Positions 5,929-37,631 of a DNA stretch of 64,000 nucleotides are shown in pieces. A program made the translations under genes and the position numbers. Source of the DNA: an uncultured Scytonema sp. (GTDB lineage: Bacteria > Cyanobacteriota > Cyanobacteriia > Cyanobacteriales > Nostocaceae); the NCBI GenBank assembly GCA_937873135.1, contig CALMVQ010000037.1, positions 2,487 through 66,486 on the forward strand, written 5' to 3'. The notes under the pieces are model-generated. The model was given only the letters and a program-made list of their open reading frames with translations. It did not search any database and was not told where the DNA came from. How positions within the stretch are numbered: position 1 is the first letter of the stretch; each line of letters begins with the position of its first letter.

Positions 5929-7235
5929 TGCTGCTTTTTTTGCTCAAAGCTTTTGGCACAAAGTCCTAAAGCTTTGTGAGGTTCTTGGGGATAAAGAGCT
6001 AAAGCTCGGCGGATTAAGTTAAGCTCTAATTGAGCAACAGCTTGTTCCAAGTTTAAATCTATGTGGTTTTCTTGACTAAATATCAGATGCTCTGGTAATA
6101 TTGTACGCCCACCGGAAAGAATAGCTGCTCGCTCTAAAGTATTTTGCAACTCTCGTACATTTCCTGGCCAAGTATGACCTGTAAGTTTTTCCAAAGCCGC
6201 TCTTGTCATTGCGATTTTCACGCCATTACGCAAAGCAATGTAGCTTAAAAAATGTTGAGTCAGTTGCTCTAAATCTTCTAGGCGATCGCGTAAAGGCGGC
6301 AGTTCCATTCGTACCACATTCAAGCGATAATAAAGGTCTTCCCGAAATTGATTTAGGTTGACAAGCTGCTCTAAATTCCGATTGGTCGCTGCTATGATGC
6401 GGATATCTACGGTTTTGGTTTGGTTACTACCCAACCGCTCAAATGATTTATCCTGTAACACCCGCAATAGTTTCCCCTGAATCACTAAGCTCAACTCTCC
6501 AACTTCATCAAGAAATATCGTTCCACCATTCGCCTGCTCAAATCGACCGATTCGTAAATGATTGGCTCCGGTGAAGGCACCTTTTTCGTGCCCAAATAAC
6601 TCTGCCTCTAACAGATGTTCTGGAAGTGCCGCACAGTTGACTTTTACCAAAGGTCCACGACTACGAGGACTGGTAGTATGGAGAGTGGAAGCGACTAACT
6701 CTTTGCCAGTGCCTGATTCTCCGGTAATTAAGACTGTGGTATTGACTTGAGCAACTCTACCAATGAGTTTAAAGACGGATGCCATCGCAGGCGATCGCCC
6801 CAATAGTTCTTCTGGGTGTCCTAAAGCTTCGGGATTTGCTTCACCAAACTGATAGGCTAAAGCATGGGAGTGAGCTAAAGCCTTTTGAGTTAGATTGACC
6901 AAATCATCCAGAGAGAAAGGTTTAGTTAAGTAATCATAGGCTCCCAACTGTATCGCTTCAATCGCTGTACGACTTGTCCCATATGCCGTCATCACAATCA
7001 CAGGCAGTTCAAACAGTGTTTTTCCCAAAGCTTTAAGAACCTCACTCCCCTGAGTTTTGGGCATTTTCAGATCCAGAAACACTAAGTCAGGAGGAGATGC
7101 CGCATCTTGTTGAATGATCTTCAGTCCCTGCTGTCCATCTCCTGCTTCTACGACTGTGTGCCCAACATCATTAAGAATCTGCGCCATTGCCTGACGCAAA
7201 GCTTTTTCATCATCAATAATGAGAATTTTAGACAC
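5916..7235 (-). CDS. Sigma-54-dependent response regulator (NtrC/ZraR-type bacterial enhancer-binding protein)
   Basis: Receiver domain has IIDDE, FLDLKMP and TKPF. The AAA+ domain has Walker A GESGTGKE, the GAFTGA loop and IFLDEVGEL. A Fis-like C-terminal HTH is present. The GTG start overlaps the kinase stop by 8 nt. Confidence 0.9.
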   Translation of the reverse strand: MSKILIIDDEKALRQAMAQILNDVGHTVVEAGDGQQGLKIIQQDAASPPDLVFLDLKMPKTQGSEVLKALGKTLFELPVIVMTAYGTSRTAIEAIQLGAYDYLTKPFSLDDLVNLTQKALAHSHALAYQFGEANPEALGHPEELLGRSPAMASVFKLIGRVAQVNTTVLITGESGTGKELVASTLHTTSPRSRGPLVKVNCAALPEHLLEAELFGHEKGAFTGANHLRIGRFEQANGGTIFLDEVGELSLVIQGKLLRVLQDKSFERLGSNQTKTVDIRIIAATNRNLEQLVNLNQFREDLYYRLNVVRMELPPLRDRLEDLEQLTQHFLSYIALRNGVKIAMTRAALEKLTGHTWPGNVRELQNTLERAAILSGGRTILPEHLIFSQENHIDLNLEQAVAQLELNLIRRALALYPQEPHKALGLCAKSFEQKKQQWNL

Positions 7236-8706
7236 GAGTGTCTCCTGACTCCTGAGTCCTAGTTGGTAAATAAACGCTAAAAATAGTACAACCAGGCTCA
7301 GAGGTTAAACTAATATATCCTCCATGTCGCGTGACGATCTCGTGGCTAATTGCTAAACCCAACCCCGTTCCTTCCGGCTTTGTGGAATAGAAAGGCTCAA
7401 AAATTCGTTCGCGCTCTTCTGGTGACAAACCCGATCCTGAGTCTTTTACCCAAGTTACCAAATCGTCTTGCTGTTCTACACCCACCTCAACTCTCTCTCC
7501 TGCTGGACTAGCTTGGATAGCATTCAAAATTAAATTCACCATCACCTGTCCTAACTCCCGACGGCGCAGTAATATCTGGGGTAAAGCCTTAGCAGGCTCG
7601 TGATAGATGAGTGCAACTCCCTGTTCTTCTGCTGATAGACGCAGCAAGGAAACAGATTCCAAAGCGATCGCCTCTAGGGAAGTCCTCACCATTTCCTCCT
7701 CTGACTGATTTTGGTCAAAGTACATCAGTCGTTGCACCAAATGCTCTAAACGGTCTACTTGTTCTATTAAGCTAGCAGTCGGTAGAGTGGTTACCCCAAG
7801 ATTGTGGAGTTGTCGTTCTGTATACTGCAAATTCAGACGCATACTGGCTAGTGGATTGCGGACTTCATGGGCTACCCCCGCTACCAGATGTCCTAAAGAT
7901 GCCAAACGCTCGACTCGGTGTAGGCGCTGTTCTAACTCTTGGCGACGACATTGCATAGTATTAATCGCAGATCCCAACAATCCCATTTCTGCTGGTAGGG
8001 GTGGAATCAGCGAAGTTTTAGAATATTCCATCACCTTGATACTCTCATGGAGTCGCTGTACTCCCCGGTGAAGTTGTAAGGCAATATAAAAAGTCCAAGC
8101 TCCCACCACTAAATTTCCGAAAACTACCAGAAGACTCAGGACTTTTTGATCACCATCTTCGAGGCGAGGCATACGTTTCATTGTCCATACTGCTCCCCAT
8201 AAAGGTAGCGGATCTGCACGCAGTACCAAGATATCAAGACCTGATTTCCGGATTAATTCTTGGGGTAAGCCTTGGCTTGTCGCTCTCCGAGCTAATTGTA
8301 AAATTGTACTTCGCTCAACCGCAGGAATATCTTTTTTCGGGATAGGTCCTCCGTGGGTAGGAAACGCATAGCCTAATAGTCGATCTTGTTGCAGCAGGTA
8401 AAATCCCCCTTCTACTCTGGGAAAAACCGTGAGCGCTTCATTTGAGAGTTCCTCCAACTGCGTGTCTGGCTGCTTGCTTGACTTTGGTGTTTGCCCAAGC
8501 GGTAATTCCCAAAACAGCTTAATCAGTCTAGTATTGGCAAAAGTCAGTGTTCTTTGGTTTCTGGCTACCACTACACCCTCTAAACTTTGAAATAGCTGTA
8601 CTACCAGCAACAACGCAGCTCCACTTAAACCTAAAAACAGGACGCTCAGGATTGTGAGTTGCTGTCGGAGTGTCCAACTTTGGGGTAATACAAAGGGTTT
8701 CATCAC
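7228..8706 (-). CDS. Membrane sensor histidine kinase (two TM helices, periplasmic loop, HisKA plus HATPase)
   Basis: H-box GVAHEVRNPLAS, N-box LILNAIQA, G-boxes DSGSGL and GTGLGL. Hydrophobic helices lie near residues 17-40 and 190-212. Confidence 0.9.
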   Translation of the reverse strand: MMKPFVLPQSWTLRQQLTILSVLFLGLSGAALLLVVQLFQSLEGVVVARNQRTLTFANTRLIKLFWELPLGQTPKSSKQPDTQLEELSNEALTVFPRVEGGFYLLQQDRLLGYAFPTHGGPIPKKDIPAVERSTILQLARRATSQGLPQELIRKSGLDILVLRADPLPLWGAVWTMKRMPRLEDGDQKVLSLLVVFGNLVVGAWTFYIALQLHRGVQRLHESIKVMEYSKTSLIPPLPAEMGLLGSAINTMQCRRQELEQRLHRVERLASLGHLVAGVAHEVRNPLASMRLNLQYTERQLHNLGVTTLPTASLIEQVDRLEHLVQRLMYFDQNQSEEEMVRTSLEAIALESVSLLRLSAEEQGVALIYHEPAKALPQILLRRRELGQVMVNLILNAIQASPAGERVEVGVEQQDDLVTWVKDSGSGLSPEERERIFEPFYSTKPEGTGLGLAISHEIVTRHGGYISLTSEPGCTIFSVYLPTRTQESGDTRV

Positions 8707-8734
8707 ATATAGCTATCGAAGCAGATTCATAATG

Positions 8735-8750
8735 TGGCACTAACCTGCCA
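8735..8750. promoter_or_regulatory. Palindrome TGGCA-N6-TGCCA between the kinase start and the sigma-54 promoter
   Basis: A perfect 5+5 inverted repeat. GG-N9-GC spacing on both strands makes it a poor sigma-54 promoter, so it could instead be an operator. Confidence 0.3.
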
Positions 8751-8767
8751 AAGTCGTCTTGTATCTA

Positions 8768-8783
8768 TGGCACGATTTTTGCA
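8768..8783 (+). promoter_or_regulatory. Sigma-54 (-24/-12) promoter TGGCACGATTTTTGCA
   Basis: Exact match to the TGGCACG-N4-TTGCA consensus with GG-N10-GC spacing. It lies 62 bp from the divergent kinase start and 48-63 bp upstream of the in-frame GTG starts of the downstream gene. Confidence 0.7.
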
Positions 8784-8845
8784 CTATTACATTTCGGGAG
8801 CTGTATTCCATACAATTGCATTCAGGATTCGTGAGGTCGTCTTTT

Positions 8846-9820
8846 GTGAAAAATAACTCAGAAGTTCGGATTCCCAAAGAAATTGCTACAAATGTTTTTG
8901 CTCTGGCTGCTCACCTGTATGAGCAAGAAAAACAGGACTATTCCTTAGAGGAACTTATACAGGCAGGAGCCGAAGTACATATTCCAAGAGAGTTGATTCA
9001 AAAAGCTATACAGCAAATCCAAGCACAGCAAAGCTCAGTTCGCTCGCGACAGCAAAAGTTAAAATTAATCTTGATCAGTGGGAGTACAGGAGCCGCGATC
9101 GCGCTTATGAGTGTATTTGCTTACAATAGTGTTGCTAGTAACTTCATCGGAACTCAGCGATCGCCAGTAAACAATCTCCTGGCTACTGATTTGCGGAATA
9201 CTAACACTCAAGATATTCCTAACCCACTCCAACCGCCACCCCCAGTCTTCCCCAAAGCAGATGAAACGACTATGACAGGAGAGGTGCAACAATATATTCT
9301 TAACCCTGAAGGAAAGGTGGATGGACTCTTACTCAAAAATGGGTTACAAGTAAAATTTCCGCCTCATATGGGGGACAGCTTAGTAGCTTTGGTGACTCAG
9401 GGAACTAAAATCACTATTTCGGGAAAACCAGGCTTGTCTACCCGCTTTGGTGAAGAGGTAAAAGCTAGAAGCATTACTAATTCTCAAACTGGACAGACTT
9501 TAGTCGCTCAACCTCCCACCATACCGCCCCAACCGCCCGGCTTGAGCAACTACAGTACTTTATCTGTAGAGGGAACCGCCCAGCATTGGTTAGTGGGACA
9601 TAGAGGTGAGATAAATGGCGTCATTGTCTCCAATGGTGCAATTGTGAAGTTCCCACCACATGTAGGCAATCAGCTAGTCAATACGGCGAATGTAGGAGAC
9701 AAAATCCAAGCTCAAGGTTTTGGAACTCGCAACCCGGAAGGTCAGATTATACAAGCTACAGCGCTTTCTATCAATGGGCAAATCGTGTCTCTAGAACCAA
9801 AAGGCGTTGTCGATCCCTAG
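8846..9820 (+). CDS. Membrane-anchored protein of unknown function with two tandem ~80-aa periplasmic repeats
   Basis: The ORF 8759..9820 overlaps the promoter, so the start is more likely the GTG at 8846 (GAGG 9 nt upstream) or at 8831. One TM helix (LILISGSTGAAIALMSVF), Pro-rich linkers, and an internal duplication sharing a NG..VKFPPH.G..LV motif. Confidence 0.7.
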   Translation: MKNNSEVRIPKEIATNVFALAAHLYEQEKQDYSLEELIQAGAEVHIPRELIQKAIQQIQAQQSSVRSRQQKLKLILISGSTGAAIALMSVFAYNSVASNFIGTQRSPVNNLLATDLRNTNTQDIPNPLQPPPPVFPKADETTMTGEVQQYILNPEGKVDGLLLKNGLQVKFPPHMGDSLVALVTQGTKITISGKPGLSTRFGEEVKARSITNSQTGQTLVAQPPTIPPQPPGLSNYSTLSVEGTAQHWLVGHRGEINGVIVSNGAIVKFPPHVGNQLVNTANVGDKIQAQGFGTRNPEGQIIQATALSINGQIVSLEPKGVVDP

Positions 9821-9833
9821 CAGGCACTCTTAT

Positions 9834-9849
9834 TGGCATGAAAATTGCG
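9834..9849 (+). promoter_or_regulatory. Candidate sigma-54 (-24/-12) promoter TGGCATGAAAATTGCG
   Basis: GG-N10-GC spacing is exact and the -12 element is TTGC. It is intergenic and 213 bp upstream of the permease start. The -12 element is contributed by a HIP1-containing repeat arm. Confidence 0.45.
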
Positions 9850-9924
9850 ATCGCGTCTCTACGTTAAAATCCCTTCGGTAGTTTTCTTTCCTTGCGATGC
9901 CCGAAATCAAAGAGACGCGATCGC
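9847..9924. repeat. Inverted repeat GCGATCGCGTCTCT ... AGAGACGCGATCGC (14-bp arms, 50-nt spacer)
   Basis: Perfect 14-bp arms, each containing HIP1. The left arm overlaps the -12 element of the candidate promoter at 9834. Confidence 0.7.
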
Positions 9925-10061
9925 CCTTGTCTCTACACTATGCCCGAACCAGCAAAATACGGATTTAAACCGCCAAGACGCCAAGGACGCAGAGAAAGAA
10001 GGTAATAAAGATAGGTAATTTTACACTCCTGATGGGAGTCATCTAAAATCTGGGCATCCAA

Positions 10062-11246
10062 ATGATTGTTTTTAGATACATCGTCATTGTAGTGACTTAT
10101 GTCGGTTTGGGTTTAGGGTATATACCTGGTTTACGGATGAATCGAGCCAGTATTGCTCTAGTTGGTTCATCTTTGCTGATGGCATTGGGCGTTTTAGATC
10201 TTAAAGAAGCATGGGGAGCGATTGATTATAAAACGCTGATTTTCTTATTTAGCATGATGGCAATCAGCGCTAACCTGGCTTACTCTGGTTTTTTTCAACT
10301 AGTGCTGGATATGATCATGCGCTATTTCCGCAGTCCCCTTGGTTTGCTGATTGTTTTAACTTGCGGTAGTGCGATTCTCTCAGCTTTTTTTCTGAATGAT
10401 ACCATTGCCCTAATTCTTACTCCCTTGACTTTAGGCTTAGCTCAAACTTTAAACCTTAATCCTATTCCTTACTTACTTGCATTGGCGGGAGCAACTAATC
10501 TTGGTTCAGTCGCGACATTGAGTGGTAATCCTCAAAATATCTTAATTGGTTCTTTTTCTGGGATCAGCTATCTTGACTTTGCTAAAGCTTTAACTCCTAT
10601 TGCATTAATAAGTTTGTTGATTCAGATAGGTTTACTGTGGTTACTCTACCCTGATATCCGCTCTACTAAATCTTGCTTGAGTGGAGAACCTTTGCGATAT
10701 CGTGTATTCAAACCCCTACTGATTAAGAGTCTACTGATCACCGGCGGATTGTTGGTTGCATTCTTAATTGGGATACCCCCAGCCCAAGCAACACTAGTCG
10801 CAGCGGGTTTAATGTTTATCACCAGGCGAATCAAACCACAGCGAATTTTAAATAAGGTGGACTGGGATTTACTAGTGATGTTTTCTGGACTGTTTATTGT
10901 GACTGCTGGAGTGGAAAAATTAGGAGTATTGGATTTATTTGGCGGTTTTGTGCATACTCCCTTGAGCATATTAGGAGTTACTGCTCTTATGTCCAATTTA
11001 GTTTCTAATGTCCCGGCTGTATTGCTACTGAAACATTTAATTCCTCATCCAGATACAAAAACTTGGTTACTCTTAGCGGCTGGCTCTACCTTGGCTGGTA
11101 ATCTAACTTTGTTAGGTTCAGTTGCTAATTTAATTGTTGCGGAAGCTGTCGCCAAACAGGGACATCATTTGTCATTTTGGGAACATTTGCGTTTTGGCCT
11201 ACCGCTGACTGTCCTGACTCTCATTATCGCCTATTGGTGGATTTAA
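10062..11246 (+). CDS. ArsB/NhaD-superfamily (citrate-transporter-like) anion permease
   Basis: 394 aa and highly hydrophobic (about 10-11 helices). The SGNPQNILIG motif is typical of this permease superfamily. Confidence 0.8.
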   Translation: MIVFRYIVIVVTYVGLGLGYIPGLRMNRASIALVGSSLLMALGVLDLKEAWGAIDYKTLIFLFSMMAISANLAYSGFFQLVLDMIMRYFRSPLGLLIVLTCGSAILSAFFLNDTIALILTPLTLGLAQTLNLNPIPYLLALAGATNLGSVATLSGNPQNILIGSFSGISYLDFAKALTPIALISLLIQIGLLWLLYPDIRSTKSCLSGEPLRYRVFKPLLIKSLLITGGLLVAFLIGIPPAQATLVAAGLMFITRRIKPQRILNKVDWDLLVMFSGLFIVTAGVEKLGVLDLFGGFVHTPLSILGVTALMSNLVSNVPAVLLLKHLIPHPDTKTWLLLAAGSTLAGNLTLLGSVANLIVAEAVAKQGHHLSFWEHLRFGLPLTVLTLIIAYWWI

Positions 11247-11304
11247 CACCAGTAAGAGTAACATTATACACAAATTTTCCCATCAGTACAATTAGGTCAT
11301 GATG

Positions 11305-11416
11305 ACTAGTACAGATCGGCGGAAATAACCCACCCATCTGAAATAGTTAAAACCCTTACAAAATAAGGTTCTTTCTTTTTACTTTTTACTTTTTACTTTT
11401 GCCTTGTTGTACTAGT
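11305..11416 (-). mobile_element. MITE, family A (ACTAGT-terminated TIRs, AAAAAGT heptamer tract), 112 bp
   Basis: ACTAGT at both ends. About 85 nt are identical to the reverse complement of 14325..14436. Confidence 0.8.
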
Positions 11417-11437
11417 GACCTATGATTTTCGGTCAAC

Positions 11438-14245
11438 CTACAACCCTCTCATAATGATTCCATCCTTAGCACGCATATAAAGCACGGGTGTGGCAAAGTC
11501 GCGTTGCTCCAATCCGACTTCTATAGAAATGGCATTGCGGGTTGTTTGGATAGCTGCGTCAACTGGCCAACCAAGTGCTAGAGTACGGTAGAACTCCGAA
11601 GCGAACAGTTTGGCAGTAGTATCGTAGATGGAGTATTGCATAGAGACTACTGCGGGAATTAAGCGACATACTAAGTTAGGCGCTATACCAGCAAGGGCTT
11701 GCGAATTGGACACTGTTGCACCTTGACAGGAATTTAGTACTACTAATCCCAAATTGTTGTCACCCAAGAAGAAGTTGGCAAAGCGCTCATCATCCAATCT
11801 TTCTTCTTTGCCGTTTTCGTCTACGAGAGAAATATAACCTTTATTGTTCTCAAAGATACCATGACCGATAAAATGGAAGACATTGTAAGGCTTTTCGCGT
11901 AACTTTTGGTTAATGTTGCGGATAGTGGGTTCAGGCAGTACATCTAATTGAATTGTACCTGCTTCTAGATGTTTTGCTAGTGCAGAGCGAAGCAGTTTTT
12001 CTTCTCCATCAACATCCAATCGTGGTAAATCAGTTGGACTAGAGATGACTAACAGAATGAGGAGTGGCGAGCTACGAGGTTTAAGTTCGCGCTTTTTTAG
12101 GGGAATGTCAATATAACGCGAGAGTACGGTTCGGGTGTCATTTGCTAGAAAAGTCTCAGTTCGTTCGTCGTAGAGAAATTCCCACGGTAGGGTAGCTAAT
12201 TCGGGAGATTCAAACACCAAGCGCAGGCGCACATTATAATTATTTTCTTCTGCACCTGCCATTGTAGCCCGTAATTGACCGTAAATATCCATGGGGAAAA
12301 GCGCTTTGTAGAGTTTGCCGCCTAATCCTTTGAGTAAATCTTCATCTGTTTGTCCCTGCTCTATCAGTTGTAATGTCAGTTTAATTTCATTGATATCCAA
12401 CCGTAATTCGCCCTGTTCTTCCCCTTGTTCAGAGTCAACGCGAATTTTTTCGTCTTTCGTCACCAATACTTGAAAATCCTGGTAATTCATGGTATAGTTG
12501 TCTCTTGCAAAAGATAAAGATTCGTCTCTATCAAGCTTCAGTTCCCGTTGTAACGGTGTAGATTGGCGGTTGACTTCCCGATTTTCTTCAAGCGGTAGCG
12601 GACTAACATCGTCAATTAGCCTGCGCACATCGACTATTTCATAGCTAATTTCGCATTCAACTTGATATCGACCAGCATTTAAGCGCTTCCGCAATGAGTC
12701 CAGAGAATAAGTATGCGGAGTCTGACTTCCCTCACAGGTAGTGCAGTTGCAAGGAACAAGTGTGTTATACTGCAAACGTTCAAAAGACTGATGAATTTTT
12801 TCTAGTTCGTGAGTGACGACTGCTAGCAAGTCTTTCTTACGGTTTCCGGCAACACGGATTTTGATTTCCCTCTGATTATAGTCTTCAATGATTTCGGCAC
12901 GAGATTGATCTTTGTTGAGGACAACACCACTTCTCCAAACGAGGTTTTGCTGTTCAATCCAAGGGTGTGTCTCAACAATGAAGCGGGTGAGAATACCTTT
13001 GGGCATGAATTCGTATTTGTAGCGTAAAATGAGATTATTCGTATCGTCCCAAGTGTAGTCGGGTTGGTTGATATTAAGTAGTTGTGGTGCAATATAGTGA
13101 TTAGGACGATTGGGAATTGGGTAGCAAAGTTTGAAGCGCATCATAAGTTGGAGTAACTCATCTCGCATATCAGTATATTCGCCGTCAAGCCAAATTTCAG
13201 CAAGATTATTCTGAGTAAAACACCCCAGATTTTCCCTAACGGTTTTGTTGTCTAAAACTTTGTAAACGGCAGTTGTACCCCATTCTGGTTTGAGAATGAT
13301 ATAGTGTTTAAGTGTAGGATCGTCTTGAAAGTGCAGGCAAACGCCTAAATCGTGCAGATAACGACTCAACCGCAACATATCTTCGCGATCGCTTAAACTA
13401 TTCTGTAGGCAAAGTTGGTAGTATTCATCCTGACTGATGTAATTGCGGGAATCATTTTCTAAGGCATAACGGACTTTTACCCAGAGTTTTGGCAAAAGTT
13501 GACCAACGTGGGGAAGCCGACTAATATATGTTTGAATATTTTCTTTAATTTCGTCTAAACCGCGATTAGTAGCTAAGTTAGTTGGGAGAATTTCTTTGAG
13601 GTGAGCGAATTCTCCACGCAAGGAGCGATCATTAACCTCGCACTGACGGTCTTGTTTTTCATTTTTAATAATTAGAACCGGGCTATTGTCGTTTAAGAGT
13701 TCGGCAACCTTGAGCCACCAGTAAAAGTCGGTGTTTTGTGTGCGAGTATCAGCGACTAAAGCGTACAGAGAACGCTTAGTAAGGAAAAACTGGTGGGTTT
13801 GGTGGTAAATTTCTTGCCCGCCAAAATCCCAAATGTTGACGCGAAAGTCTTTGCCATTAGGTTGTGTGAAATGCCACTGAATCACATCAATGCCTGAAGT
13901 TGATTTTTCATCCGATTGAAGTTTGTAGCTTTCATTTTTAATTTTCTTGGCTAAAGAAGTTTTACCAGATCCCCCTTCACCAATAATTAAAAATTTGGCT
14001 TCATAAAAAGGTTCAGTTTCGGATGGATCTTGCACCCGAAAATAGAAATCAAGAATTTCCTTCACATCACCTGGATCTTCATTTAGGTTTTTTGAACCCA
14101 AAATCTCAGGTGGAATCGGCACTGGGTTCCCATGCAAATCCAGTTTTTTCAGCTTTGGTATTTGCCTAATTTCTGATGGCAGACTGCTCAGTTGATTGCT
14201 CTTAAGCTTTGGGAAAACTAGTGCCGCAAGGCGGAAGTCACTCAT
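11438..14245 (-). CDS. ROCO-type GTPase (residual LRR, Roc, COR) fused to a C-terminal CHAT (caspase-like) protease domain
   Basis: 935 aa. LRR remnant is NQLSSLPSEIRQIPKLKKLDLHGN. Roc P-loop is GEGGSGKTSLAK, with WDFGGQE as the switch II motif. The CHAT His/Cys dyad is FIGHG (H795) and LNSCQG (C840). Confidence 0.85.
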   Translation of the reverse strand: MSDFRLAALVFPKLKSNQLSSLPSEIRQIPKLKKLDLHGNPVPIPPEILGSKNLNEDPGDVKEILDFYFRVQDPSETEPFYEAKFLIIGEGGSGKTSLAKKIKNESYKLQSDEKSTSGIDVIQWHFTQPNGKDFRVNIWDFGGQEIYHQTHQFFLTKRSLYALVADTRTQNTDFYWWLKVAELLNDNSPVLIIKNEKQDRQCEVNDRSLRGEFAHLKEILPTNLATNRGLDEIKENIQTYISRLPHVGQLLPKLWVKVRYALENDSRNYISQDEYYQLCLQNSLSDREDMLRLSRYLHDLGVCLHFQDDPTLKHYIILKPEWGTTAVYKVLDNKTVRENLGCFTQNNLAEIWLDGEYTDMRDELLQLMMRFKLCYPIPNRPNHYIAPQLLNINQPDYTWDDTNNLILRYKYEFMPKGILTRFIVETHPWIEQQNLVWRSGVVLNKDQSRAEIIEDYNQREIKIRVAGNRKKDLLAVVTHELEKIHQSFERLQYNTLVPCNCTTCEGSQTPHTYSLDSLRKRLNAGRYQVECEISYEIVDVRRLIDDVSPLPLEENREVNRQSTPLQRELKLDRDESLSFARDNYTMNYQDFQVLVTKDEKIRVDSEQGEEQGELRLDINEIKLTLQLIEQGQTDEDLLKGLGGKLYKALFPMDIYGQLRATMAGAEENNYNVRLRLVFESPELATLPWEFLYDERTETFLANDTRTVLSRYIDIPLKKRELKPRSSPLLILLVISSPTDLPRLDVDGEEKLLRSALAKHLEAGTIQLDVLPEPTIRNINQKLREKPYNVFHFIGHGIFENNKGYISLVDENGKEERLDDERFANFFLGDNNLGLVVLNSCQGATVSNSQALAGIAPNLVCRLIPAVVSMQYSIYDTTAKLFASEFYRTLALGWPVDAAIQTTRNAISIEVGLEQRDFATPVLYMRAKDGIIMRGL

Positions 14246-30592: not shown

Positions 30593-31423
30593 ATGACTTA
30601 CGGCAACAGCAAAAGCACAGTAGATAACGTACTAGAAGTTGATCAGAAAAATGCAATTTTTGATATCGAAGGGGTTAAGGTCTATTACAGTGGCTTGATG
30701 GCGCTTCAGTCAGTCAATATGAGAATTCCTGAGAAACAGATAGTCGCTTTTATTGGACCTTCAGGGTGTGGTAAAAGTACTTTATTGCGTTGCTTCAACC
30801 GCATGAACGATCTAATCCCTGGCGCTACGGTTGAAGGAAGGCTAAATTACCGCCATAGAAATATTTACGCTCCCAAAGTTAATTCGGTAAAACTACGGCG
30901 TCAAGTAGGGATGGTTTTCCAAAGGCCGAATCCTTTTCCCAAGTCAATTTATGAAAACATTGCCTTTGCACCGCGCACTAATGGTTATAAAGGCAATATG
31001 GATGAATTGGTGGAACAATCGCTGAGACGGGCGGCGATTTGGGATGAAGTCAAAGACAAACTCAAATCGAAGGGGACAGCCTTATCTGGCGGACAACAGC
31101 AACGACTTTGCATTGCACGAGCGATCGCCATGAAACCAGATGTCCTGTTGATGGATGAACCTTGTTCTGCTCTAGATCCGATTTCAACTCGTCAGGTTGA
31201 AGAACTTTGCCTTGAACTCAAGGAACAATACACCATTATTATGGTAACCCACAACATGCAGCAAGCCTCGCGGACAGCAGATTGGACTGCTTTTTTCAAC
31301 ACCGAAACAGACGAACATGGCAAACGCAGAGGAAGATTAGTCGAGTTCAGTCCTACTGACATAATGTTCAGTTCTCCTACGACTCAGGAAGCTGAGGAAT
31401 ATATCAGTGGCCGTTTCGGTTAA
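30593..31423 (+). CDS. pstB: Phosphate ABC transporter ATP-binding protein
   Basis: Walker [10 protein letters not shown], signature LSGGQQQRL, Walker B VLLMDEP. Confidence 0.9.
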
Positions 31424-31432
31424 CCTTTGAAC

Positions 31433-31468
31433 GCACCCCAGCTATAATCTCTGATTTAGCTGGGGTGC
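31433..31468. terminator. 11-bp stem hairpin GCACCCCAGCT...AGCTGGGGTGC between the convergent pstB and the HNH-like gene
   Basis: Perfect 11-bp stem with a 14-nt loop. There is no clear T-run on either strand. Confidence 0.45.
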
Positions 31469-31566
31469 ATTCGCTACGTAGCCCTTTGACTACGCAACGT
31501 TCCCAGAGCTATTATTTGCGATTGGCTACCTCGGTAAGTTTGTTGAAAAGTCGCTCGCAACATATG

Positions 31567-32007
31567 TCAAAGCTCATCACTTGACCAGCCCTCCCTTGCA
31601 AGGCAGAAGGCAGAGGCTTGATTGCCGAAGGAATAAGTAATCTTTTGGGAAGGAAGCAAAATTTCAAACCAATCTTCTGCCAAATCAAAGGGGTCAAGTA
31701 CTTGGTCATCAAGAGTGCCTTTGGTACTATTAATCCAAGCAGAAGCAAAACGTAAATTGCTCCATTCGTAAGCCAAATTGCGATAATTTTCGCGGCTAAG
31801 AAAATGGTCTACCGTACCAACTGGTTCGTACATCACTGAATAAGCACAAAGATTATTGAAGCCATCAGCTAAAATACTTTTAAACGGCGACCAATAATCC
31901 CTAGTTCCTTTTTTTTGTTCTGGATTTTTCAATAACCAAGCATTCCCCGGTACTCTCACTTTGTCATCAAAATCTGAAGGTTCTGGTAGAGGTTTAAAGG
32001 GTATCAT
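31567..32007 (-). CDS. TIGR02646-like HNH-superfamily protein (PtuB-like; Cys-poor variant)
   Basis: 146 aa. The pattern CAYS...VDHFLSR...YEWSNLRFAS..IN.TKG matches the CaYCE...EHf.Pks...W.NL..aC..CN..Kg family signature with the Zn-ligand Cys positions substituted. Confidence 0.6.
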   Translation of the reverse strand: MIPFKPLPEPSDFDDKVRVPGNAWLLKNPEQKKGTRDYWSPFKSILADGFNNLCAYSVMYEPVGTVDHFLSRENYRNLAYEWSNLRFASAWINSTKGTLDDQVLDPFDLAEDWFEILLPSQKITYSFGNQASAFCLAREGWSSDEL

Positions 32008-32095
32008 TATAATATTATGCTCCCGATCAACCAGAAGTTCTTTTTTCTGATGTGACTATCCAACGGGGCCAAAATGGGTCATGTCCAGGTAAAAC

Positions 32096-34332
32096 CCACC
32101 TTCCGCACCCTAAGCGTCACACATCAACAAAAAGCTGACAGGGTAGTACAGAAGAACTAAGTTAAATGCAAAAATCAAGAGACTTAATGAGAAGAAGTAG
32201 CATTAATTAGAGGATTTGGCGAAAAGAGGAAGTTTTGTGATGAGACAGAAGAAAGGGAAAACTTCATAGTTAAAAAAAATAATTGATAACAAAAAGATAA
32301 ATGAGAGAATTGCAACAGAAGTAGTGGAGAATACTGTTGTGATGTTGAATGCAGAAGACATTGAAATTCAGAACATAGACCATCTAGGGATAGTAGCAGG
32401 AATAATAGATTCTATAGGATTAGTAGAAATAATCAATGAATTAATAGGTGAAGAAAAAGAAGAAAAAGTAAGTCCAGGTCATGTAGTCAAAGCCATGATC
32501 TTGAACGGCTTAGGATTTGTATCCAAACCTTTGTATATGTTTCCCAAATATTTTGAAACAATAGCCTGTGAACATTTAATAGGACAAGGAGTCAAACCAG
32601 AATATCTAAACGACGATAAACTGGGGAGAGTCATGGATAAACTATTTATAAAAGGACTGGATACAATATTTTTTATCATTGCTTTAAAAGCAGCTAAAAA
32701 GTTTAATGTATCACTGTCAACATCACATCTAGATTCATCATCAATGCACGTGCATGGGGAATACAATACCAGCTTACCAGAAGTAATATTTGAAAATCAA
32801 CAATTAGGAAATACCCAAGACATAGAAGATTTAACAGTAAAATCACCAAAAGAAATTACCATAACTTACGGTTATTCAAGAGATCATAGACCAGACTTAA
32901 AACAATTTATCATAGAACTAATATGTTCAGGAGATGGGGACATACCAATATTTTTGAAACTAGCATCAGGAAACCAATCAGACTCATCATGCTTTGGAAA
33001 AATAGCAGTTGAGTATCAAGAACAATTAGAAGTTAACAGTCTCATAGTTGCAGACTGCGCTTTATATACAGAATCAAATCTGAAATTGATGTCAGAATTA
33101 CGCTGGTTATGTCGAGTGCCATTAAGTATTAACATCGCACAATCACTAATATCAACATTACCAGAATTGGAATTTATCGATAATAATTTGCTCGGATATA
33201 AACTTGCTTCAAAAACAGTCACTTATGGAGAAATAGAACAAAGATGGTTGGTAGTACAAAGCCAAGATAGAAGAGAATCAGATCTGCGTAAACTCTCACA
33301 AAAAATTAATAAGGCAGAGTCAAAAGCTATTCAGGAATTGAAAAAGTTATCACAAGATAAATTTGCACCTTGTTGCTGATGCAATCAAGGCATTATCAAA
33401 ACTATCAAAACAATTTAAGTATCACCAAATTCAAGAAAGTAAAGTTACTGAAATCACATCTAACAAAAAAGATAATTCAGCAGGAATATCTTACCAAATT
33501 TCAGCTACAGTATCTAAGAATGAAAGTAAAATTAATACAGAAATTCTGAGTGCAGGGCGTTTCATTCTTGCCACAAATCTTTTAGACTCAAATGAACTCA
33601 GTGACGACTCAATACTGAGTGAATATAAAGCCCAGCAGTCCTGTGAGAGGGGATTTGGTTTTCTTAAAGATCCATTATTTTTTGCCGATAGTATTTTCCT
33701 CAAAAGCCCTGAAAGAATTCAATCTCTAGGAATGATTATGGGTTTATGTCTGCTGGTTTATACATTGGCTCAACGTCAAGTAAGAGCCGCTTTATCTGAG
33801 TCGAAATCAACGATTAAAAATCAGTTGGGTAAAGCAACTGACCGCCCCACTTTGCGTTGGATATTTCAATGCTTTCAGTGTATTCATTTAGTTAAATTTA
33901 ACAACGCAAAATACGTTTCTAATTGGACTAATGATAGGAATTTTATCCTGAATCTTTTACCAGATGATTGTCTTCGTTATTATCAATTAATCACGTAATT
34001 ATTATCTCTATTAATTTAATATAGACGTTACCTGAAGCTCATCGTTTTGATTCATAGCTCTAATTTACTATGTCAAAAATCTAGTTCGGTCACTTCAATT
34101 CATTATTCTAATTTATGATTTCAGTGTTTAACATCTTCTTTTATTTATCTCATCCGAATCTATCTGCCATCAGTTCTTATTGCTCCTTATTGACACTCTT
34201 GTTTTGATGCCATTTTTGGTGATTGATGGCTGCTCAAATCTCTTTTTTGTCTAAATCTGTCTGTTTTTATTCTTACTTGCCTTTTTTCTCTCAGTAATTT
34301 CCCTATCGTGACAGTTGGGGTGCGGAATGTGG
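32096..34332 (+). mobile_element. IS element (IS1634/IS4-like), 2237 bp, with imperfect 25-bp TIRs and an 8-bp target site duplication
   Basis: The left inverted repeat (IRL) CCACCTTCCGCACCCTAAGCGTCAC matches the reverse complement of the right one (IRR), CCACATTCCGCACCCCAACTGTCAC, at 21 of 25 positions. GGTAAAAC is duplicated at 32088..32095 and 34333..34340. Confidence 0.8.
32324..33998 (+). pseudogene. IS1634-family DDE transposase split by one frameshift near 33363..33379
   Basis: ORF 32324..33379 (DHLGIVAGIIDSIGLVEIINE...) continues in another frame as 33363..33998 (...ADAIKALSKL...). Confidence 0.7.
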
Positions 34333-35552
34333 GGTAAAACCCTCTGCAATTCTTGATGGATTTGTGCTTGCGTTCTTAAGTTTTCATTCCATACCCCCAT
34401 ATGATCATTACGCATCCATGCTTCTGCTGCTTCAATCGCAATTTCTGCTTCTTGAGAACGGGCTTGTTTAAGTCCAAAAATTTCTGAGGTTAGCCAGCCA
34501 ACAGTATCCCCTTGTTTTGACCAAGGTACTTCCTCAAGAGTTACTTTTCTATCTTCTAATTTGAATAAAAATAATCTGTCTTCCTCCTGCTCAAAATTTG
34601 GTTCCAAAGAAGCAAGAATAAGTGGAGAATGGGTAGTTACTAAAGTCTGTACTTTAATGGATGCCTGCAAGGAAGCAACTACCGTTAAAATTGCTGGTAA
34701 AATTACCCTCTGCCAACTCGGATGGAGGTGAGATTCAATTTCATCAATTAACAAAACTATCTGCTTTACAGGCTCTTGCTGTCGCAATTCCGAAGCCAAA
34801 GTATGTTCGTACCAAGTCCATACTAGTAAATAAGCAAGTCCCAAAATCCGCTTCATTCCCGCCGAAACTTGAGTAACAGGAACACTACCATAAGGGAGAT
34901 TAATTGTTGGAATCTCCCGTACATCTTCCACAGAAACTCGCGTTGGTTCTCCCACGGATATCCATTCGTCGGGATGTGGTGCAAGTTTTTTAATCACACT
35001 AGAAAAAAGTAGAAATGGATATTTATTAGGTTGATTCTGCCATGTTACCCAATCTTCAATTAACCCATTACAAAGCACTTTATCGTTTGATTTTAAACCA
35101 TTCCACAGAGAAGAAGAAGTAAAATTATAAGCATCATCGCGTTTGCGTACTGGGTCGTAAACAGAGAAACCTCCATCAACCCGAACATAAATTACCACTG
35201 ACGAAACGGCTTGATGGTTTTGTTCTCGTTCTGTGGGGGAAATTTCCTCCACAGAGCTTGAGCGTAAATTACGCCATTGTTGTGAAGAAAAATCAAATAA
35301 ACTCTGATATTCCTTATTGATTTCTCCTTGGACATTATTAACTAAAGCTGTAATTTGGGGATGTTTATCTCTTCCCTGTTGCACATAAGCTACCTGTTCT
35401 ACCCAATTATTGGTAAGAACCCACCAAGTAATATCAAGTAAAAAACTTTTACCCAGACCGTTATCACCCGTAAATATATTCAGCCTCGAAGCAAATTCAA
35501 CATTAAAATGGTCAGATGGACCTACTTGTTGAAGGTGAAGTTCTTTTAACAT
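34251..35552 (-). CDS. ABC/AAA_21-type ATPase (PtuA-like); 3' end replaced by IS-derived sequence
   Basis: Walker A GDNGLGKS, signature-like SAGMKR, Walker B LLIDEIESHLHP, H-loop TTHSP. The last 26 codons (from 34331 down) lie inside the IS. Confidence 0.75.
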   Translation of the reverse strand: MLKELHLQQVGPSDHFNVEFASRLNIFTGDNGLGKSFLLDITWWVLTNNWVEQVAYVQQGRDKHPQITALVNNVQGEINKEYQSLFDFSSQQWRNLRSSSVEEISPTEREQNHQAVSSVVIYVRVDGGFSVYDPVRKRDDAYNFTSSSLWNGLKSNDKVLCNGLIEDWVTWQNQPNKYPFLLFSSVIKKLAPHPDEWISVGEPTRVSVEDVREIPTINLPYGSVPVTQVSAGMKRILGLAYLLVWTWYEHTLASELRQQEPVKQIVLLIDEIESHLHPSWQRVILPAILTVVASLQASIKVQTLVTTHSPLILASLEPNFEQEEDRLFLFKLEDRKVTLEEVPWSKQGDTVGWLTSEIFGLKQARSQEAEIAIEAAEAWMRNDHMGVWNENLRTQAQIHQELQRVLPHIPHPNCHDREITERKKASKNKNRQI

Positions 35553-35799
35553 CCGAATATTCCTGTAGTAGTATTAACCGATTATTTCACCGGATGGTAT
35601 TTCCCATCTTTACTGTACAGCTTTAGCAGTAGTTTTCTTTTTTCAAGTAATTGGATGATATAAATTTGTTGTAAGAATTGATGAGCCAGAATCCAGGGGT
35701 CAGAATAGTTAGTGATACTGTTGGTGAAGTCGAAAAAGGGCAGACGTGGGACAATATTTACGTACCTAGCAATCGACCATAGCATCGCTAAAGCAGAGA

Positions 35800-36000
35800 G
35801 GAATAGTCAAAGTGCTTCAACAAAAGTCAATTAGCCCTGAACGGTTACGAGACAGAGCGTATTGCTGACGCTGCTTTTCCCAAAGGCAGTATTTACATTA
35901 CCATGCGTAAGGAAATCGGAACTCTCTACAACTTTTCAAGATTTTGAAGCACTATTTCCCACGCATGGGCAACCAGCTTTTAGTCCTTGGCGATTAGCGA
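35800..36000 (+). pseudogene. Remnant of an IS1182/IS5-type transposase N-terminus
   Basis: Translated ...FQDFEALFPTHGQPAFSPWRLA... resembles the conserved GRPA.sPwrLA segment. It is interrupted by stops and truncated. Confidence 0.45.
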
Positions 36001-36160
36001 TTAGCTTGTATCACAAGTACCAGCCCTACTCATTCGAGATCACGGTGTGACAGTTTGGGCATCTTCGGAAGAAACAGCCCGCAATTATATTGAGTTGGTG
36101 GACTATATTTTCTGCTATATGGTTGCAACAAGGCAGATATTGGGTGGGTGAGGTAGATCG

Positions 36161-36616
36161 TCACTGATTGCTTCTCACTTCATTTTCCGTCAGGCGATTG
36201 AGGTATCTTTCGATTAAGAGAATGGCGACAATATCATCTATTGGTCGTGGTGGTTGTCGCATACCTTGTGGCAATAGCTTCGAGAGTCCTTTTGGGGGGT
36301 ACATTTGCCAATAGCGATCGCGTGCTTCTAAGCTAGAGTAGCGCTCATCTACTAAAACAATATTTAGTGGATCTGCTAGTTTCTGATGGAGTTGCTGTTT
36401 CCATTGCTTGGCTGTGGTTTGATCCCCCATCACAAGTAAAGAAATAGGAAACCTTTGACGCAGCGTCATGATAGTGGCGATCGCCTCAGCTGCTGATACA
36501 ACTTGGTGATAATGCAATCGCCGGTCCACTCCCATGATCGCTAAACCACATTTATCTCGACCTGGATCAAAGCCTAAAATCACCGGTTGTGTTGGCGAAA
36601 ATTCACGGAGTGTCAT
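36161..36616 (-). CDS. YqgF/RuvX-like putative resolvase/nuclease
   Basis: 151 aa with ILGFDPGRDKCGLA and LVDERYSSLEA, matching the YqgF pattern (G.D.G..r.G.A ... DEr.T). Confidence 0.7.
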   Translation of the reverse strand: MTLREFSPTQPVILGFDPGRDKCGLAIMGVDRRLHYHQVVSAAEAIATIMTLRQRFPISLLVMGDQTTAKQWKQQLHQKLADPLNIVLVDERYSSLEARDRYWQMYPPKGLSKLLPQGMRQPPRPIDDIVAILLIERYLNRLTENEVRSNQ

Positions 36617-37448
36617 TCGATTTTGGATTTTGGATTTTGGATTGATAAGAGCGGTTTATACCGTTCGCATGAGAATGCGCGGATTTTATATTTATGATAT
36701 TGAATAACCCAAGTTGACATCACCAGCATATGTGATATGTTGGTGACCCAGCACGCTCATGAGTGTCTCCCGCGTCCTGGTAAGGAGCGAACCCCGAAGA
36801 GTTATTAGGTCATGAGGAACTCGGAAATGGGGAATCGGGAATATAGCATTTATCGTTTGAGTCACATACATAAAATCTTCACAATACCCTATAATAAACC
36901 GATTATCCAAAGTTGTGAGAGGAAAAAATGTATAAGACACAACTGAGAAATACTATAATTTCTTACCCATTCCCTACTACCGATCCCATTACCAGCCTGC
37001 GTCCTTCCAACTAATTTGCGAGACGTTAATACCTTTAATCATATGACCTACTCGGGGGGTAAACTAAATCTACTTAAAGCTATGCGCTCGCCGTAGAAGT
37101 GTCTTGAATTGCTGCTGTCTTCTAATTTGGTGGTGGCTGTAGCACGTTGGCAACAATAGGCTTGAGTTTCCCAAATTAGAGCCAATGCACGCCCCACCCT
37201 TGCAATGAACCTAATTTATTGTATGTCAATGCTCTGGCGATTCCGCACAAGTGCATTATTTCATCGACTTGTGCCGAATCCCAACAAGAAACAACAGGGA
37301 TTATCTGAGTGTAGGTTTGTTCAATTGTCGATTTTTTACCCTGCTGTTTCTTGTTTGACCTCGCCATAACTTCTCTTTTTCTCGTGTAACTTTATGATAA
37401 CATATACTTAGACGAGCAACCCGATGTAAATCTAAAGATTATTGTCAA

Positions 37449-37631
37449 ATGGGACAGAAAAAAGTCAGGGGAGTTGGGCAGGACTATAACGAAGTCAAAC
37501 TTCACATTCACATTGTCTTAACTCCCACAGCTAAGCAACTATTGCTTGAACGAGTCAAAGAACGTGGGTGTAGAAGTATCAGTGATTTGGTGGAAAAATG
37601 GGCAAGAGGGGAACATACTTACTTTTGCTAA
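37449..37631 (+). CDS. Small putative ribbon-helix-helix-like protein
   Basis: 60 aa. VLTPTAKQLLLERVKERGCRSISDLVEKWAR resembles RHH/CopG-type folds. Weak. Confidence 0.3.
   Translation: MGQKKVRGVGQDYNEVKLHIHIVLTPTAKQLLLERVKERGCRSISDLVEKWARGEHTYFC

Follow-up and report, generated by a model that had tools for sequence, protein, structure and literature searches.

A two-gene Septu operon with lesions in both genes in a Rhizonema-like cyanobacterium

Results

The Septu operon of the window is broken in both genes

The stretch analysed here (the window; 64,000 nucleotides of contig CALMVQ010000037.1, filed as uncultured Scytonema sp.) comes from a Rhizonema-like heterocystous cyanobacterium and carries, in a variable spot flanked by ruvX and pstB, a stand-alone two-gene operon of the Septu anti-phage system, made up of the ATPase gene ptuA and the HNH nuclease gene ptuB. 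Both genes have been hit by recent and independent lesions: an insertion sequence (IS) has cut ptuA close to its 3′ end and parted it from ptuB, and ptuB itself breaks off at its junction with a truncated copy of a dispersed repeat. We put at roughly 0.87 the probability that the operon is now pseudogenised by these two events and that the PtuA-PtuB complex, and the defence with it, would thereby have been lost. What is left of the operon are two minus-strand open reading frames (ORFs), one of 433 amino acids (aa) at 34251..35552 and one of 146 aa at 31567..32007, which together with the elements that interrupt them resolve into the following features (L001 is the IS-free ortholog described below).

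34333..35552, minus strand: native codons 1-407 of ptuA, an ABC/SMC-like ATPase according to PADLOC, Pfam and identity to L001
34251..34332, minus strand: chimeric, IS-encoded ptuA tail of 26 codons (HIPHPNCHDREITERKKASKNKNRQI) followed by a TAG stop
34333..34340: right copy of the target-site duplication (GGTAAAAC, 8 bp)
32096..34332, plus strand: insertion sequence of the IS1634 family, 2237 bp, with its transposase antisense to the ptu genes
32096..32110 and 34318..34332: terminal inverted repeats of the IS, with ends CCACCTTCCGCACCC and CCACATTCCGCACCC, 14 of 15 positions matching
32324..33998, plus strand: split transposase gene, ORFs 32324..33379 and 33363..33998, with a +1-nt frameshift near 33367
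32088..32095: left copy of the target-site duplication (GGTAAAAC, 8 bp)
32027..32095, minus strand: orphaned 3′ end of ptuA, that is its last 19 codons (GHDPFWPRWIVTSEKRTSG, with the tail motif LPGHDPFWPRWIV) and the TGA stop
32008..32026, minus strand: native ptuA-ptuB spacer of 19 nt, of the same length and with 18 of 19 bases identical in L001
31647..32007, minus strand: native codons 1-120 of ptuB, the HNH nuclease domain with D67-H68, N84 and N93 and without zinc-ligand cysteines
31567..31646, minus strand: non-native ptuB tail of 26 unrelated codons (QKITYSFGNQASAFCLAREGWSSDEL) and a stop, which replaces a conserved helical C-terminal domain of 72 aa
31581..31646, no strand assigned: truncated copy of a dispersed repeat that is short and present in high copy number, the edge of which is the ptuB breakpoint

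Profile and fold searches identify ptuA and ptuB

An earlier reading of the letters alone (hereafter the sequence-only reading) had named the two ORFs as the PtuA/PtuB pair of Septu, and both profile and fold searches bear this out. Deleting the IS and one copy of the duplication in silico gave a PtuA ORF of 426 aa ending ...ELQRVLPGHDPFWPRWIVTSEKRTSG, of which residues 1-424 of 426 aligned to positions 1-421 of the 424 of the PADLOC profile PDLC00307 (E 9e-174); position 421 is reached only once the orphaned 3′ piece is rejoined. The restored protein also scored above the cut-offs of Pfam AAA_15 (67.1 bits) and AAA_21 (66.5 bits) and displays the motifs GDNGLGKS (Walker A), SAGMKR, LLIDEIE (Walker B), LLIDEIESHLHP and TTHSP. 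The window PtuB matched the PADLOC profile PDLC00348 (E 5e-49) over positions 1-128 of 198 only. Pfam returned no HNH domain match for it, and TIGR02646 gave 23.5 bits (E 4.6e-05) against a cut-off of 52.15; the protein thus appears to be related to TIGR02646, outside that model's trusted range. The HNH catalytic columns D67-H68, N84 and N93, which are invariant or nearly so across the clade, are all present, and the HNH-fold nuclease character of PtuB is found for residues 1-120 of the window protein only.

A sequence search of the Protein Data Bank with the proteins of the intact ortholog returned only the Walker B region for PtuA and a marginal match for PtuB (E 0.41), and because this gave so little a fold search was needed. 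For the full-length PtuB relative P0002, an AlphaFold2 (AF2) model (predicted local distance difference test, pLDDT, 91; predicted template modelling score, pTM, 0.81) had as its top 11 fold matches exclusively PtuB chains of Septu or retron I-A complexes, among them 9nnb_J, 9u9y_H and 8eea_G, all with a probability of 1.00. For PtuA, the AF2 monomer model of the relative P0121 (mean pLDDT 68.7) best matched the E. coli Septu PtuA chain 8eea_B, with an E value of 3.9e-13. Solved PtuA and PtuB chains are therefore the best fold matches of the relatives of both window proteins.

An IS1634-family element entered the 3′ end of ptuA

The two transposase ORFs of the IS scored 269.2 and 131.9 bits against NCBIfam NF033559 (IS1634; cut-off 100), covering positions 2-309 and 317-482 of the 483 of this model, and the transposase N-terminus corresponds to Pfam DUF4277. 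With this transposase, its terminal inverted repeats and the direct duplication of its target, the element shares the hallmarks of the IS1634 family, and it differs from related copies in other runs in that its transposase is split by the +1 frameshift. Related IS copies in the runs X2, X3 and X7 are one base short at 33367, and removing base 33367 in silico yields a single transposase ORF of 558 aa; this unshifted form was seen in no contig of the source run. The IS in the window thus lacks the uninterrupted transposase ORF that an autonomous element needs. Word depth over the IS in the source run is about 2x that of the flanks, and within the window the IS sequence matches only itself.

Without the IS and one duplicate, ptuA ends in a TGA at 32029..32027, followed by the 19-nt spacer and by the ptuB ATG at 32007. 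The insertion left 407 native codons of ptuA in place, removed 19 and added 26 that are encoded by the IS. The adjacency and co-orientation of ptuA and ptuB that are a feature of Septu are present in the ancestral arrangement and not in the window, where the 2237-bp IS with its antisense transposase gene intervenes. The lost tail belongs to the conserved part of the protein, as its motif LPGHDPFWPRW[IL]V is kept in orthologs from Nostocales to Polyangia.

In L019, another assembly of the same strain, base 34252 of the window (L019 position 3756) differs, the coding-strand A being a C that turns the TAG stop of the chimeric tail into TCG. The IS-encoded tail there comprises 53 codons and the chimeric PtuA-IS ORF 460 aa, versus 433 aa in the window; the difference likely stems from variation among IS copies or from polymorphism.

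An IS-free ortholog, sequencing runs and a second assembly agree on the insertion

A scan for the locus with one genome per species gave 18 loci, and in 14 of the 18 that were fetched ptuB follows ptuA after 5-20 nt. One of them, L001, from the metagenome-assembled genome of Rhizonema sp. NSF051, is 95-97% identical to the window at the DNA level and free of the IS; its ptuA, 95-96% identical to that of the window, encodes an uninterrupted PtuA of 426 aa with an identical 19-residue tail, and is followed by the TGA stop, a 19-nt spacer and a ptuB gene for 192 aa. Logan contigs of the source run X1 extend over 31617..32392, across the breakpoint of ptuB and the left junction of the IS, and over 34304..35900, across the right junction. 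The related run X2 holds the empty site, with 32087 joined to 34333 and the 2245 bp of the IS and one duplicate skipped, and L019 has the same structure as the window, with 2 mismatches in 12441 bases. Since the native junction of L001, the X1 contigs, L019 and the X2 empty site agree, the insertion is real and is neither a chance resemblance nor a misassembly.

The coordinates that the sequence-only reading had given for the IS and for its 8-bp duplication were thereby reproduced, as were its exchange of 19 ATPase codons for 26 of the IS and the displacement of ptuB from the operon, and its reconstructed 3′ end of the ATPase gene, with TGA at 32027..32029 and the 19-nt spacer, recurs unchanged in L001. 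The PADLOC search with the IS-deleted sequence and the comparison with the IS-free ortholog point the same way: the profiles assign the two proteins to one system, and the relative shows the native junction that had been reconstructed.

ptuB ends at a truncated copy of a dispersed repeat

The disruption by the IS, as first read, is real and only part of what happened, since ptuB is also truncated after codon 120. From its start down to position 31647 the gene is 96.9% identical to that of L001 at the DNA level, and there homology ends abruptly. Full-length PtuB relatives are mostly 185-200 aa long and have in common a strongly conserved C-terminal segment, LQLVLTD.VP...AEFTL.RL.LRDDERV.RQRQ.WY.LY..G..TL.GLEKKAPLIARA; residues 121-192, which are highly conserved across the clade, are absent from the window. 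In the P0002 model the lost segment comprises a β-strand (122-125) and four helices within residues 131-194.

The sequence that takes its place is repetitive. In the source run the summed contig word depth over 31581..31646 is about 926, versus 31.5 in the flanks, corresponding to roughly 25-30 copies, or 25-30x the flank depth. Other copies of the repeat have differing flanks before 31581 and a common sequence (ATACACGATTAGACTC...) past 31646, so that ptuB is cut exactly at the junction with a truncated repeat copy. This 66-bp repeat has no second copy in the window or in 19 loci and no Rfam match, it is not part of the IS, and an exact 24-mer scan of metagenome contigs gave 0 matches. In frame, the ptuB tail weakly resembles the true C-terminal domain, so that a tblastn alignment ran on to residue 163; this was rejected as a chance extension, because DNA homology is absent there and the tail consists of repeat DNA.

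The decay is recent, and a relative decayed on its own

Relative to the intact L001, the ratio of nonsynonymous to synonymous substitution rates (dN/dS) was 0.23 over codons 1-406 of ptuA and 0.35 over codons 1-120 of ptuB, with dS at about 0.08; for comparison, ruvX gave 0.155 versus L002. Because dN/dS against the intact ortholog is low, the divergence must have accumulated mostly under purifying selection, and the inactivation is recent.

L002 (Rhizonema sp. PD37, 6001..12960) has the same synteny of a DUF3084 gene, ruvX and ptuA, and no ptuB. Its ptuA is stopped in frame at codon 142 and broken at codon 355, and 5.9 kb of other DNA lie before pstB, including fragments of IS66 and genes for a CHAT-domain and a PIN-domain protein; this decay is independent of that in the window. 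Independent inactivations by multiple hits are carried at the ruvX-pstB locus by 2 of the 3 Rhizonema-type genomes covered here. Degenerate loci elsewhere, cyanobacterial and deltaproteobacterial, include L005 with a ptuB fragment only, L006 without ptuB and L018 with an N-terminally truncated ptuA, and several cyanobacterial PtuB entries (P0005, P0007, P0015, P0051, P0083) are truncated, the database truncations measuring 107-143 aa.

The zinc-ligand cysteines are missing from the whole PtuB clade

In Retron-Eco7, PtuB binds zinc through four cysteines (C43/C46/C78/C90), and changing all four to alanine abolishes defence (PMC12673091). Among 67 full-length relatives of the window PtuB, none (0/67) has four cysteines in the HNH region. 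C54, Y56, H68, N84, W91 and N93 are invariant in all 67, with S or T at position 57 and mostly A at position 88; of the expected Cys4 ligands the clade thus keeps only C54, the others being S/T57, A88 and W91, and the motifs C-x-Y-S and W-x-N vary hardly or not at all. The absence of zinc cysteines that the sequence-only reading had noticed in a divergent HNH protein therefore holds at the level of the clade and is no peculiarity of this copy: the missing Cys4 site is a trait of all its members, which are already represented by a PADLOC PtuB model of their own.

Discussion

Two lesions, probably on the two sides of one interface

In characterised systems two C-terminal extensions of PtuA enclose PtuB's helical C-terminal domain within a nine-helix bundle, toxicity depends critically on the PtuA extension, and PtuAB complexes, not PtuB by itself, have shown nuclease activity (PMC12819146). 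Retron-Eco7 has a like PtuA-PtuB architecture, and Septu 8EEA binds PtuB similarly (PMC12673091). In the literature, PtuA of the intact system is described as binding ATP and restraining PtuB. The E. coli Septu PtuAB reportedly degrades phage DNA, with ATP binding inhibiting the DNase and the fall of ATP on infection enhancing it (PMC12673091), and according to a newer report Septu cleaves tRNA-Tyr (PMC13096335).

Mapped onto this architecture, the history of the locus may be put as follows. An intact Septu PtuA dimer would clamp the C-terminal helices of PtuB between its two C-terminal extensions and hold the nuclease inactive until infection. One lesion arose when an IS1634-family element entered ptuA at codon 408, making the 8-bp duplication, swapping the conserved tail (GHDPFWPRWIV...) for IS-encoded residues and moving ptuB 2.26 kb from the operon promoter. 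In the other, the 3′ third of ptuB, which encodes the helical C-terminal domain, was lost at the truncated-repeat junction. In the window the last 19 aa of PtuA are replaced and PtuB 121-192 are absent, and by homology both lesions would remove the docking interface, each from its own side, so that no PtuA-PtuB complex should form and defence would be lost. Because ptuB is also truncated, precise excision of the IS alone would probably not restore function.

Several points weigh against this account. Loss of function is something that we infer from homology, and the interface role of the lost segments is likewise assigned by homology: the clade shares only about 15-20% identity with the solved PtuA and PtuB, the mapping of the interface rests on fold similarity and conservation, and residues 407-430 of the PtuA monomer model, which cover the region of the lost tail, have a pLDDT below 50. 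The interrupted PtuA retains every ATPase motif and the PtuB remnant its HNH catalytic residues, and some residual or altered activity of the remnants might persist. A sigma-70-like promoter site on the minus strand inside the IS, at 32436..32409, faces ptuB and could in principle drive its remnant; such promoter-like sites are not enriched, 12 being found versus 14.8 expected from shuffled sequence.

Other explanations of the locus

If the IS were the only lesion, and the 146-aa ptuB complete and merely divergent, taking the IS out would give back a working Septu. The exactness of the IS reconstruction speaks for this, as does a ptuB frame that stays open over 146 codons and keeps D67-H68, N84 and N93, but the frame covers just positions 1-128 of 198 of the PADLOC PtuB profile, the ortholog and the 67 relatives are 185-200 aa long with a conserved C-terminal domain that the window does not have, the DNA identity to L001 falls from 96.9% to nothing at 31647, and the tail is dispersed repeat; we hold this explanation to be highly unlikely. 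It is also very unlikely, if a shade less so, that the locus retains an altered activity, in which the chimeric PtuA works as an ATPase and the truncated HNH protein, freed from PtuA control, acts on its own as a nuclease or toxin whose expression starts from an outward promoter at the IS end. The intact catalytic motifs of both proteins, the few nonsynonymous changes relative to the intact ortholog, the site facing ptuB and the other truncated cyanobacterial PtuB ORFs would fit such a role. Against it, both lost segments rank among the most conserved parts of PtuA and PtuB, toxicity in characterised systems needs the PtuA extension and nuclease activity has been seen for the complexes, not for PtuB alone, selection would act against an unregulated nuclease, promoter-like sites do not exceed their number in shuffled sequence, and recent inactivation explains the low dN/dS equally well.

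Both breakpoints abut repeats, the IS at about 2x and the 66-bp repeat at about 25-30x flank depth, and chimeric joins at these repeats might in principle have produced the insertion, the ptuB breakpoint or both during assembly. A perfect 8-bp duplication together with the exact restoration of a conserved ORF is the signature of transposition, however, and with X1 contigs across the ptuB breakpoint and both IS junctions and a second assembly that agrees over 12.4 kb with 2 mismatches, an artefact is extremely improbable. We therefore retain pseudogenisation by two independent lesions as the reading of this locus.

Relation to known systems

The restored operon resembles Septu type I (8EE4, 8EEA, 8SUX; PDLC00307/PDLC00348) in its two-gene order, the ABC/SMC-like AAA_15/AAA_21 ATPase coming first and the HNH nuclease within about 20 nt of it, in the full-length PADLOC match of the restored PtuA, in the helical C-terminal PtuB domain of its intact relatives, and in having neither a reverse transcriptase nor a third gene. 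It differs from characterised Septu in that the window copy is broken twice, by the IS in the 3′ end of ptuA and by the loss of ptuB's C-terminal domain; in that the whole cyanobacterial clade is without the Cys4 zinc site of characterised PtuB (PMC12673091); and in its identity of about 15-20% to the solved proteins, with no Pfam HNH match and TIGR02646 under its cut-off. Both Septu type I and disruption by an IS followed by further decay are already known, and the host lineage is new. Literature searches on Rhizonema defence systems, and on Septu together with cyanobacteria and IS, found nothing relevant.

Retron type I-A modules (Ec78/Eco7, Ec83/Eco4) have homologous ATPase and HNH folds and the same C-terminal docking of PtuB, whereas the window has no reverse transcriptase or msr/msd RNA near the ptu genes, its proteins score 57.7 (PtuA; cut-off 500) and 15.4 (PtuB; cut-off 150) against the NCBIfam retron models, and its restored PtuA measures 426 aa versus about 550 aa. 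Judged by length alone, the window PtuA would be expected to have neither the N-terminal extension nor the coiled coil that are specific to retrons. Neither a reverse transcriptase nor a conserved third gene stands beside ptuA and ptuB in the window or at five intact loci, and Rfam gave 0 matches in 31000..37500. An association with a retron was rejected on these grounds, namely the lack of a reverse transcriptase and of an Rfam match, the unrelated neighbours, and retron equivalogs far under their cut-offs. The PtuA relatives P0234, P0235 and P0240 (62-63% identical), of about 562 aa, have an extra N-terminal PF20731 domain and correspond to the longer PADLOC model PDLC00270.

For annotation, the locus is one that defence finders would miss or call an intact Septu, and the fitting entry is a pseudogenised Septu that carries two lesions. 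The locus offers what may be a natural example in which both halves of the docking interface have been removed; with the intact allele in a sister genome it forms a natural mutant set, and such mutants would allow the interface model to be tested in a PtuB clade without zinc-ligand cysteines. It is also one more data point for how rapidly defence genes turn over in cyanobacterial symbionts. The novelty is mild and opens no new question, being confined to the zinc cysteines that PtuB lacks throughout the clade and to the independent losses that recur in Rhizonema. These two could be joined in a wider proposal, in which the cyanobacteria-centred Septu clade (PDLC00307/PDLC00348) would be a functional subtype with a PtuB HNH nuclease that needs no zinc, an invariant C-x-Y-S ... 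W-x-N packing standing in for the Cys4 finger on which Retron-Eco7 PtuB depends, and in which Rhizonema lichen photobionts would repeatedly lose the system; as a whole we regard this proposal as tentative and rather doubtful. If it were true, the repeated loss in Rhizonema would point to relaxed selection for defence, or to a cost of carriage, within the symbiosis.

Neighbourhood of the locus

The ruvX-pstB interval resembles a variable hotspot. The neighbours of the five intact loci differ from one to the next and include a Gp49-like protein, a C5 methylase and a relaxase with MobC. In L009 (2467..4046, a Coleofasciculaceae contig) an intact ptuAB lies directly beside genes for NikA/MobC-like and MobA/VirD2 relaxase proteins, which suggests that this ptuAB is carried on a mobilisable element.

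In the gap between ruvX and ptuA, the window segment 35680..36129 (about 450 bp) is without a counterpart in L002, where the homologous flanking blocks abut directly, and L001 has only 35680..35871 of it. Just downstream of pstB, at 31429..31472, stands a GC-rich palindrome (GCACCCCAGCTA...TAGCTGGGGTGC), and a similar palindromic element occurs in another context in L002, at 10955..11024; the palindrome of the window is probably a dispersed palindromic repeat or a terminator.

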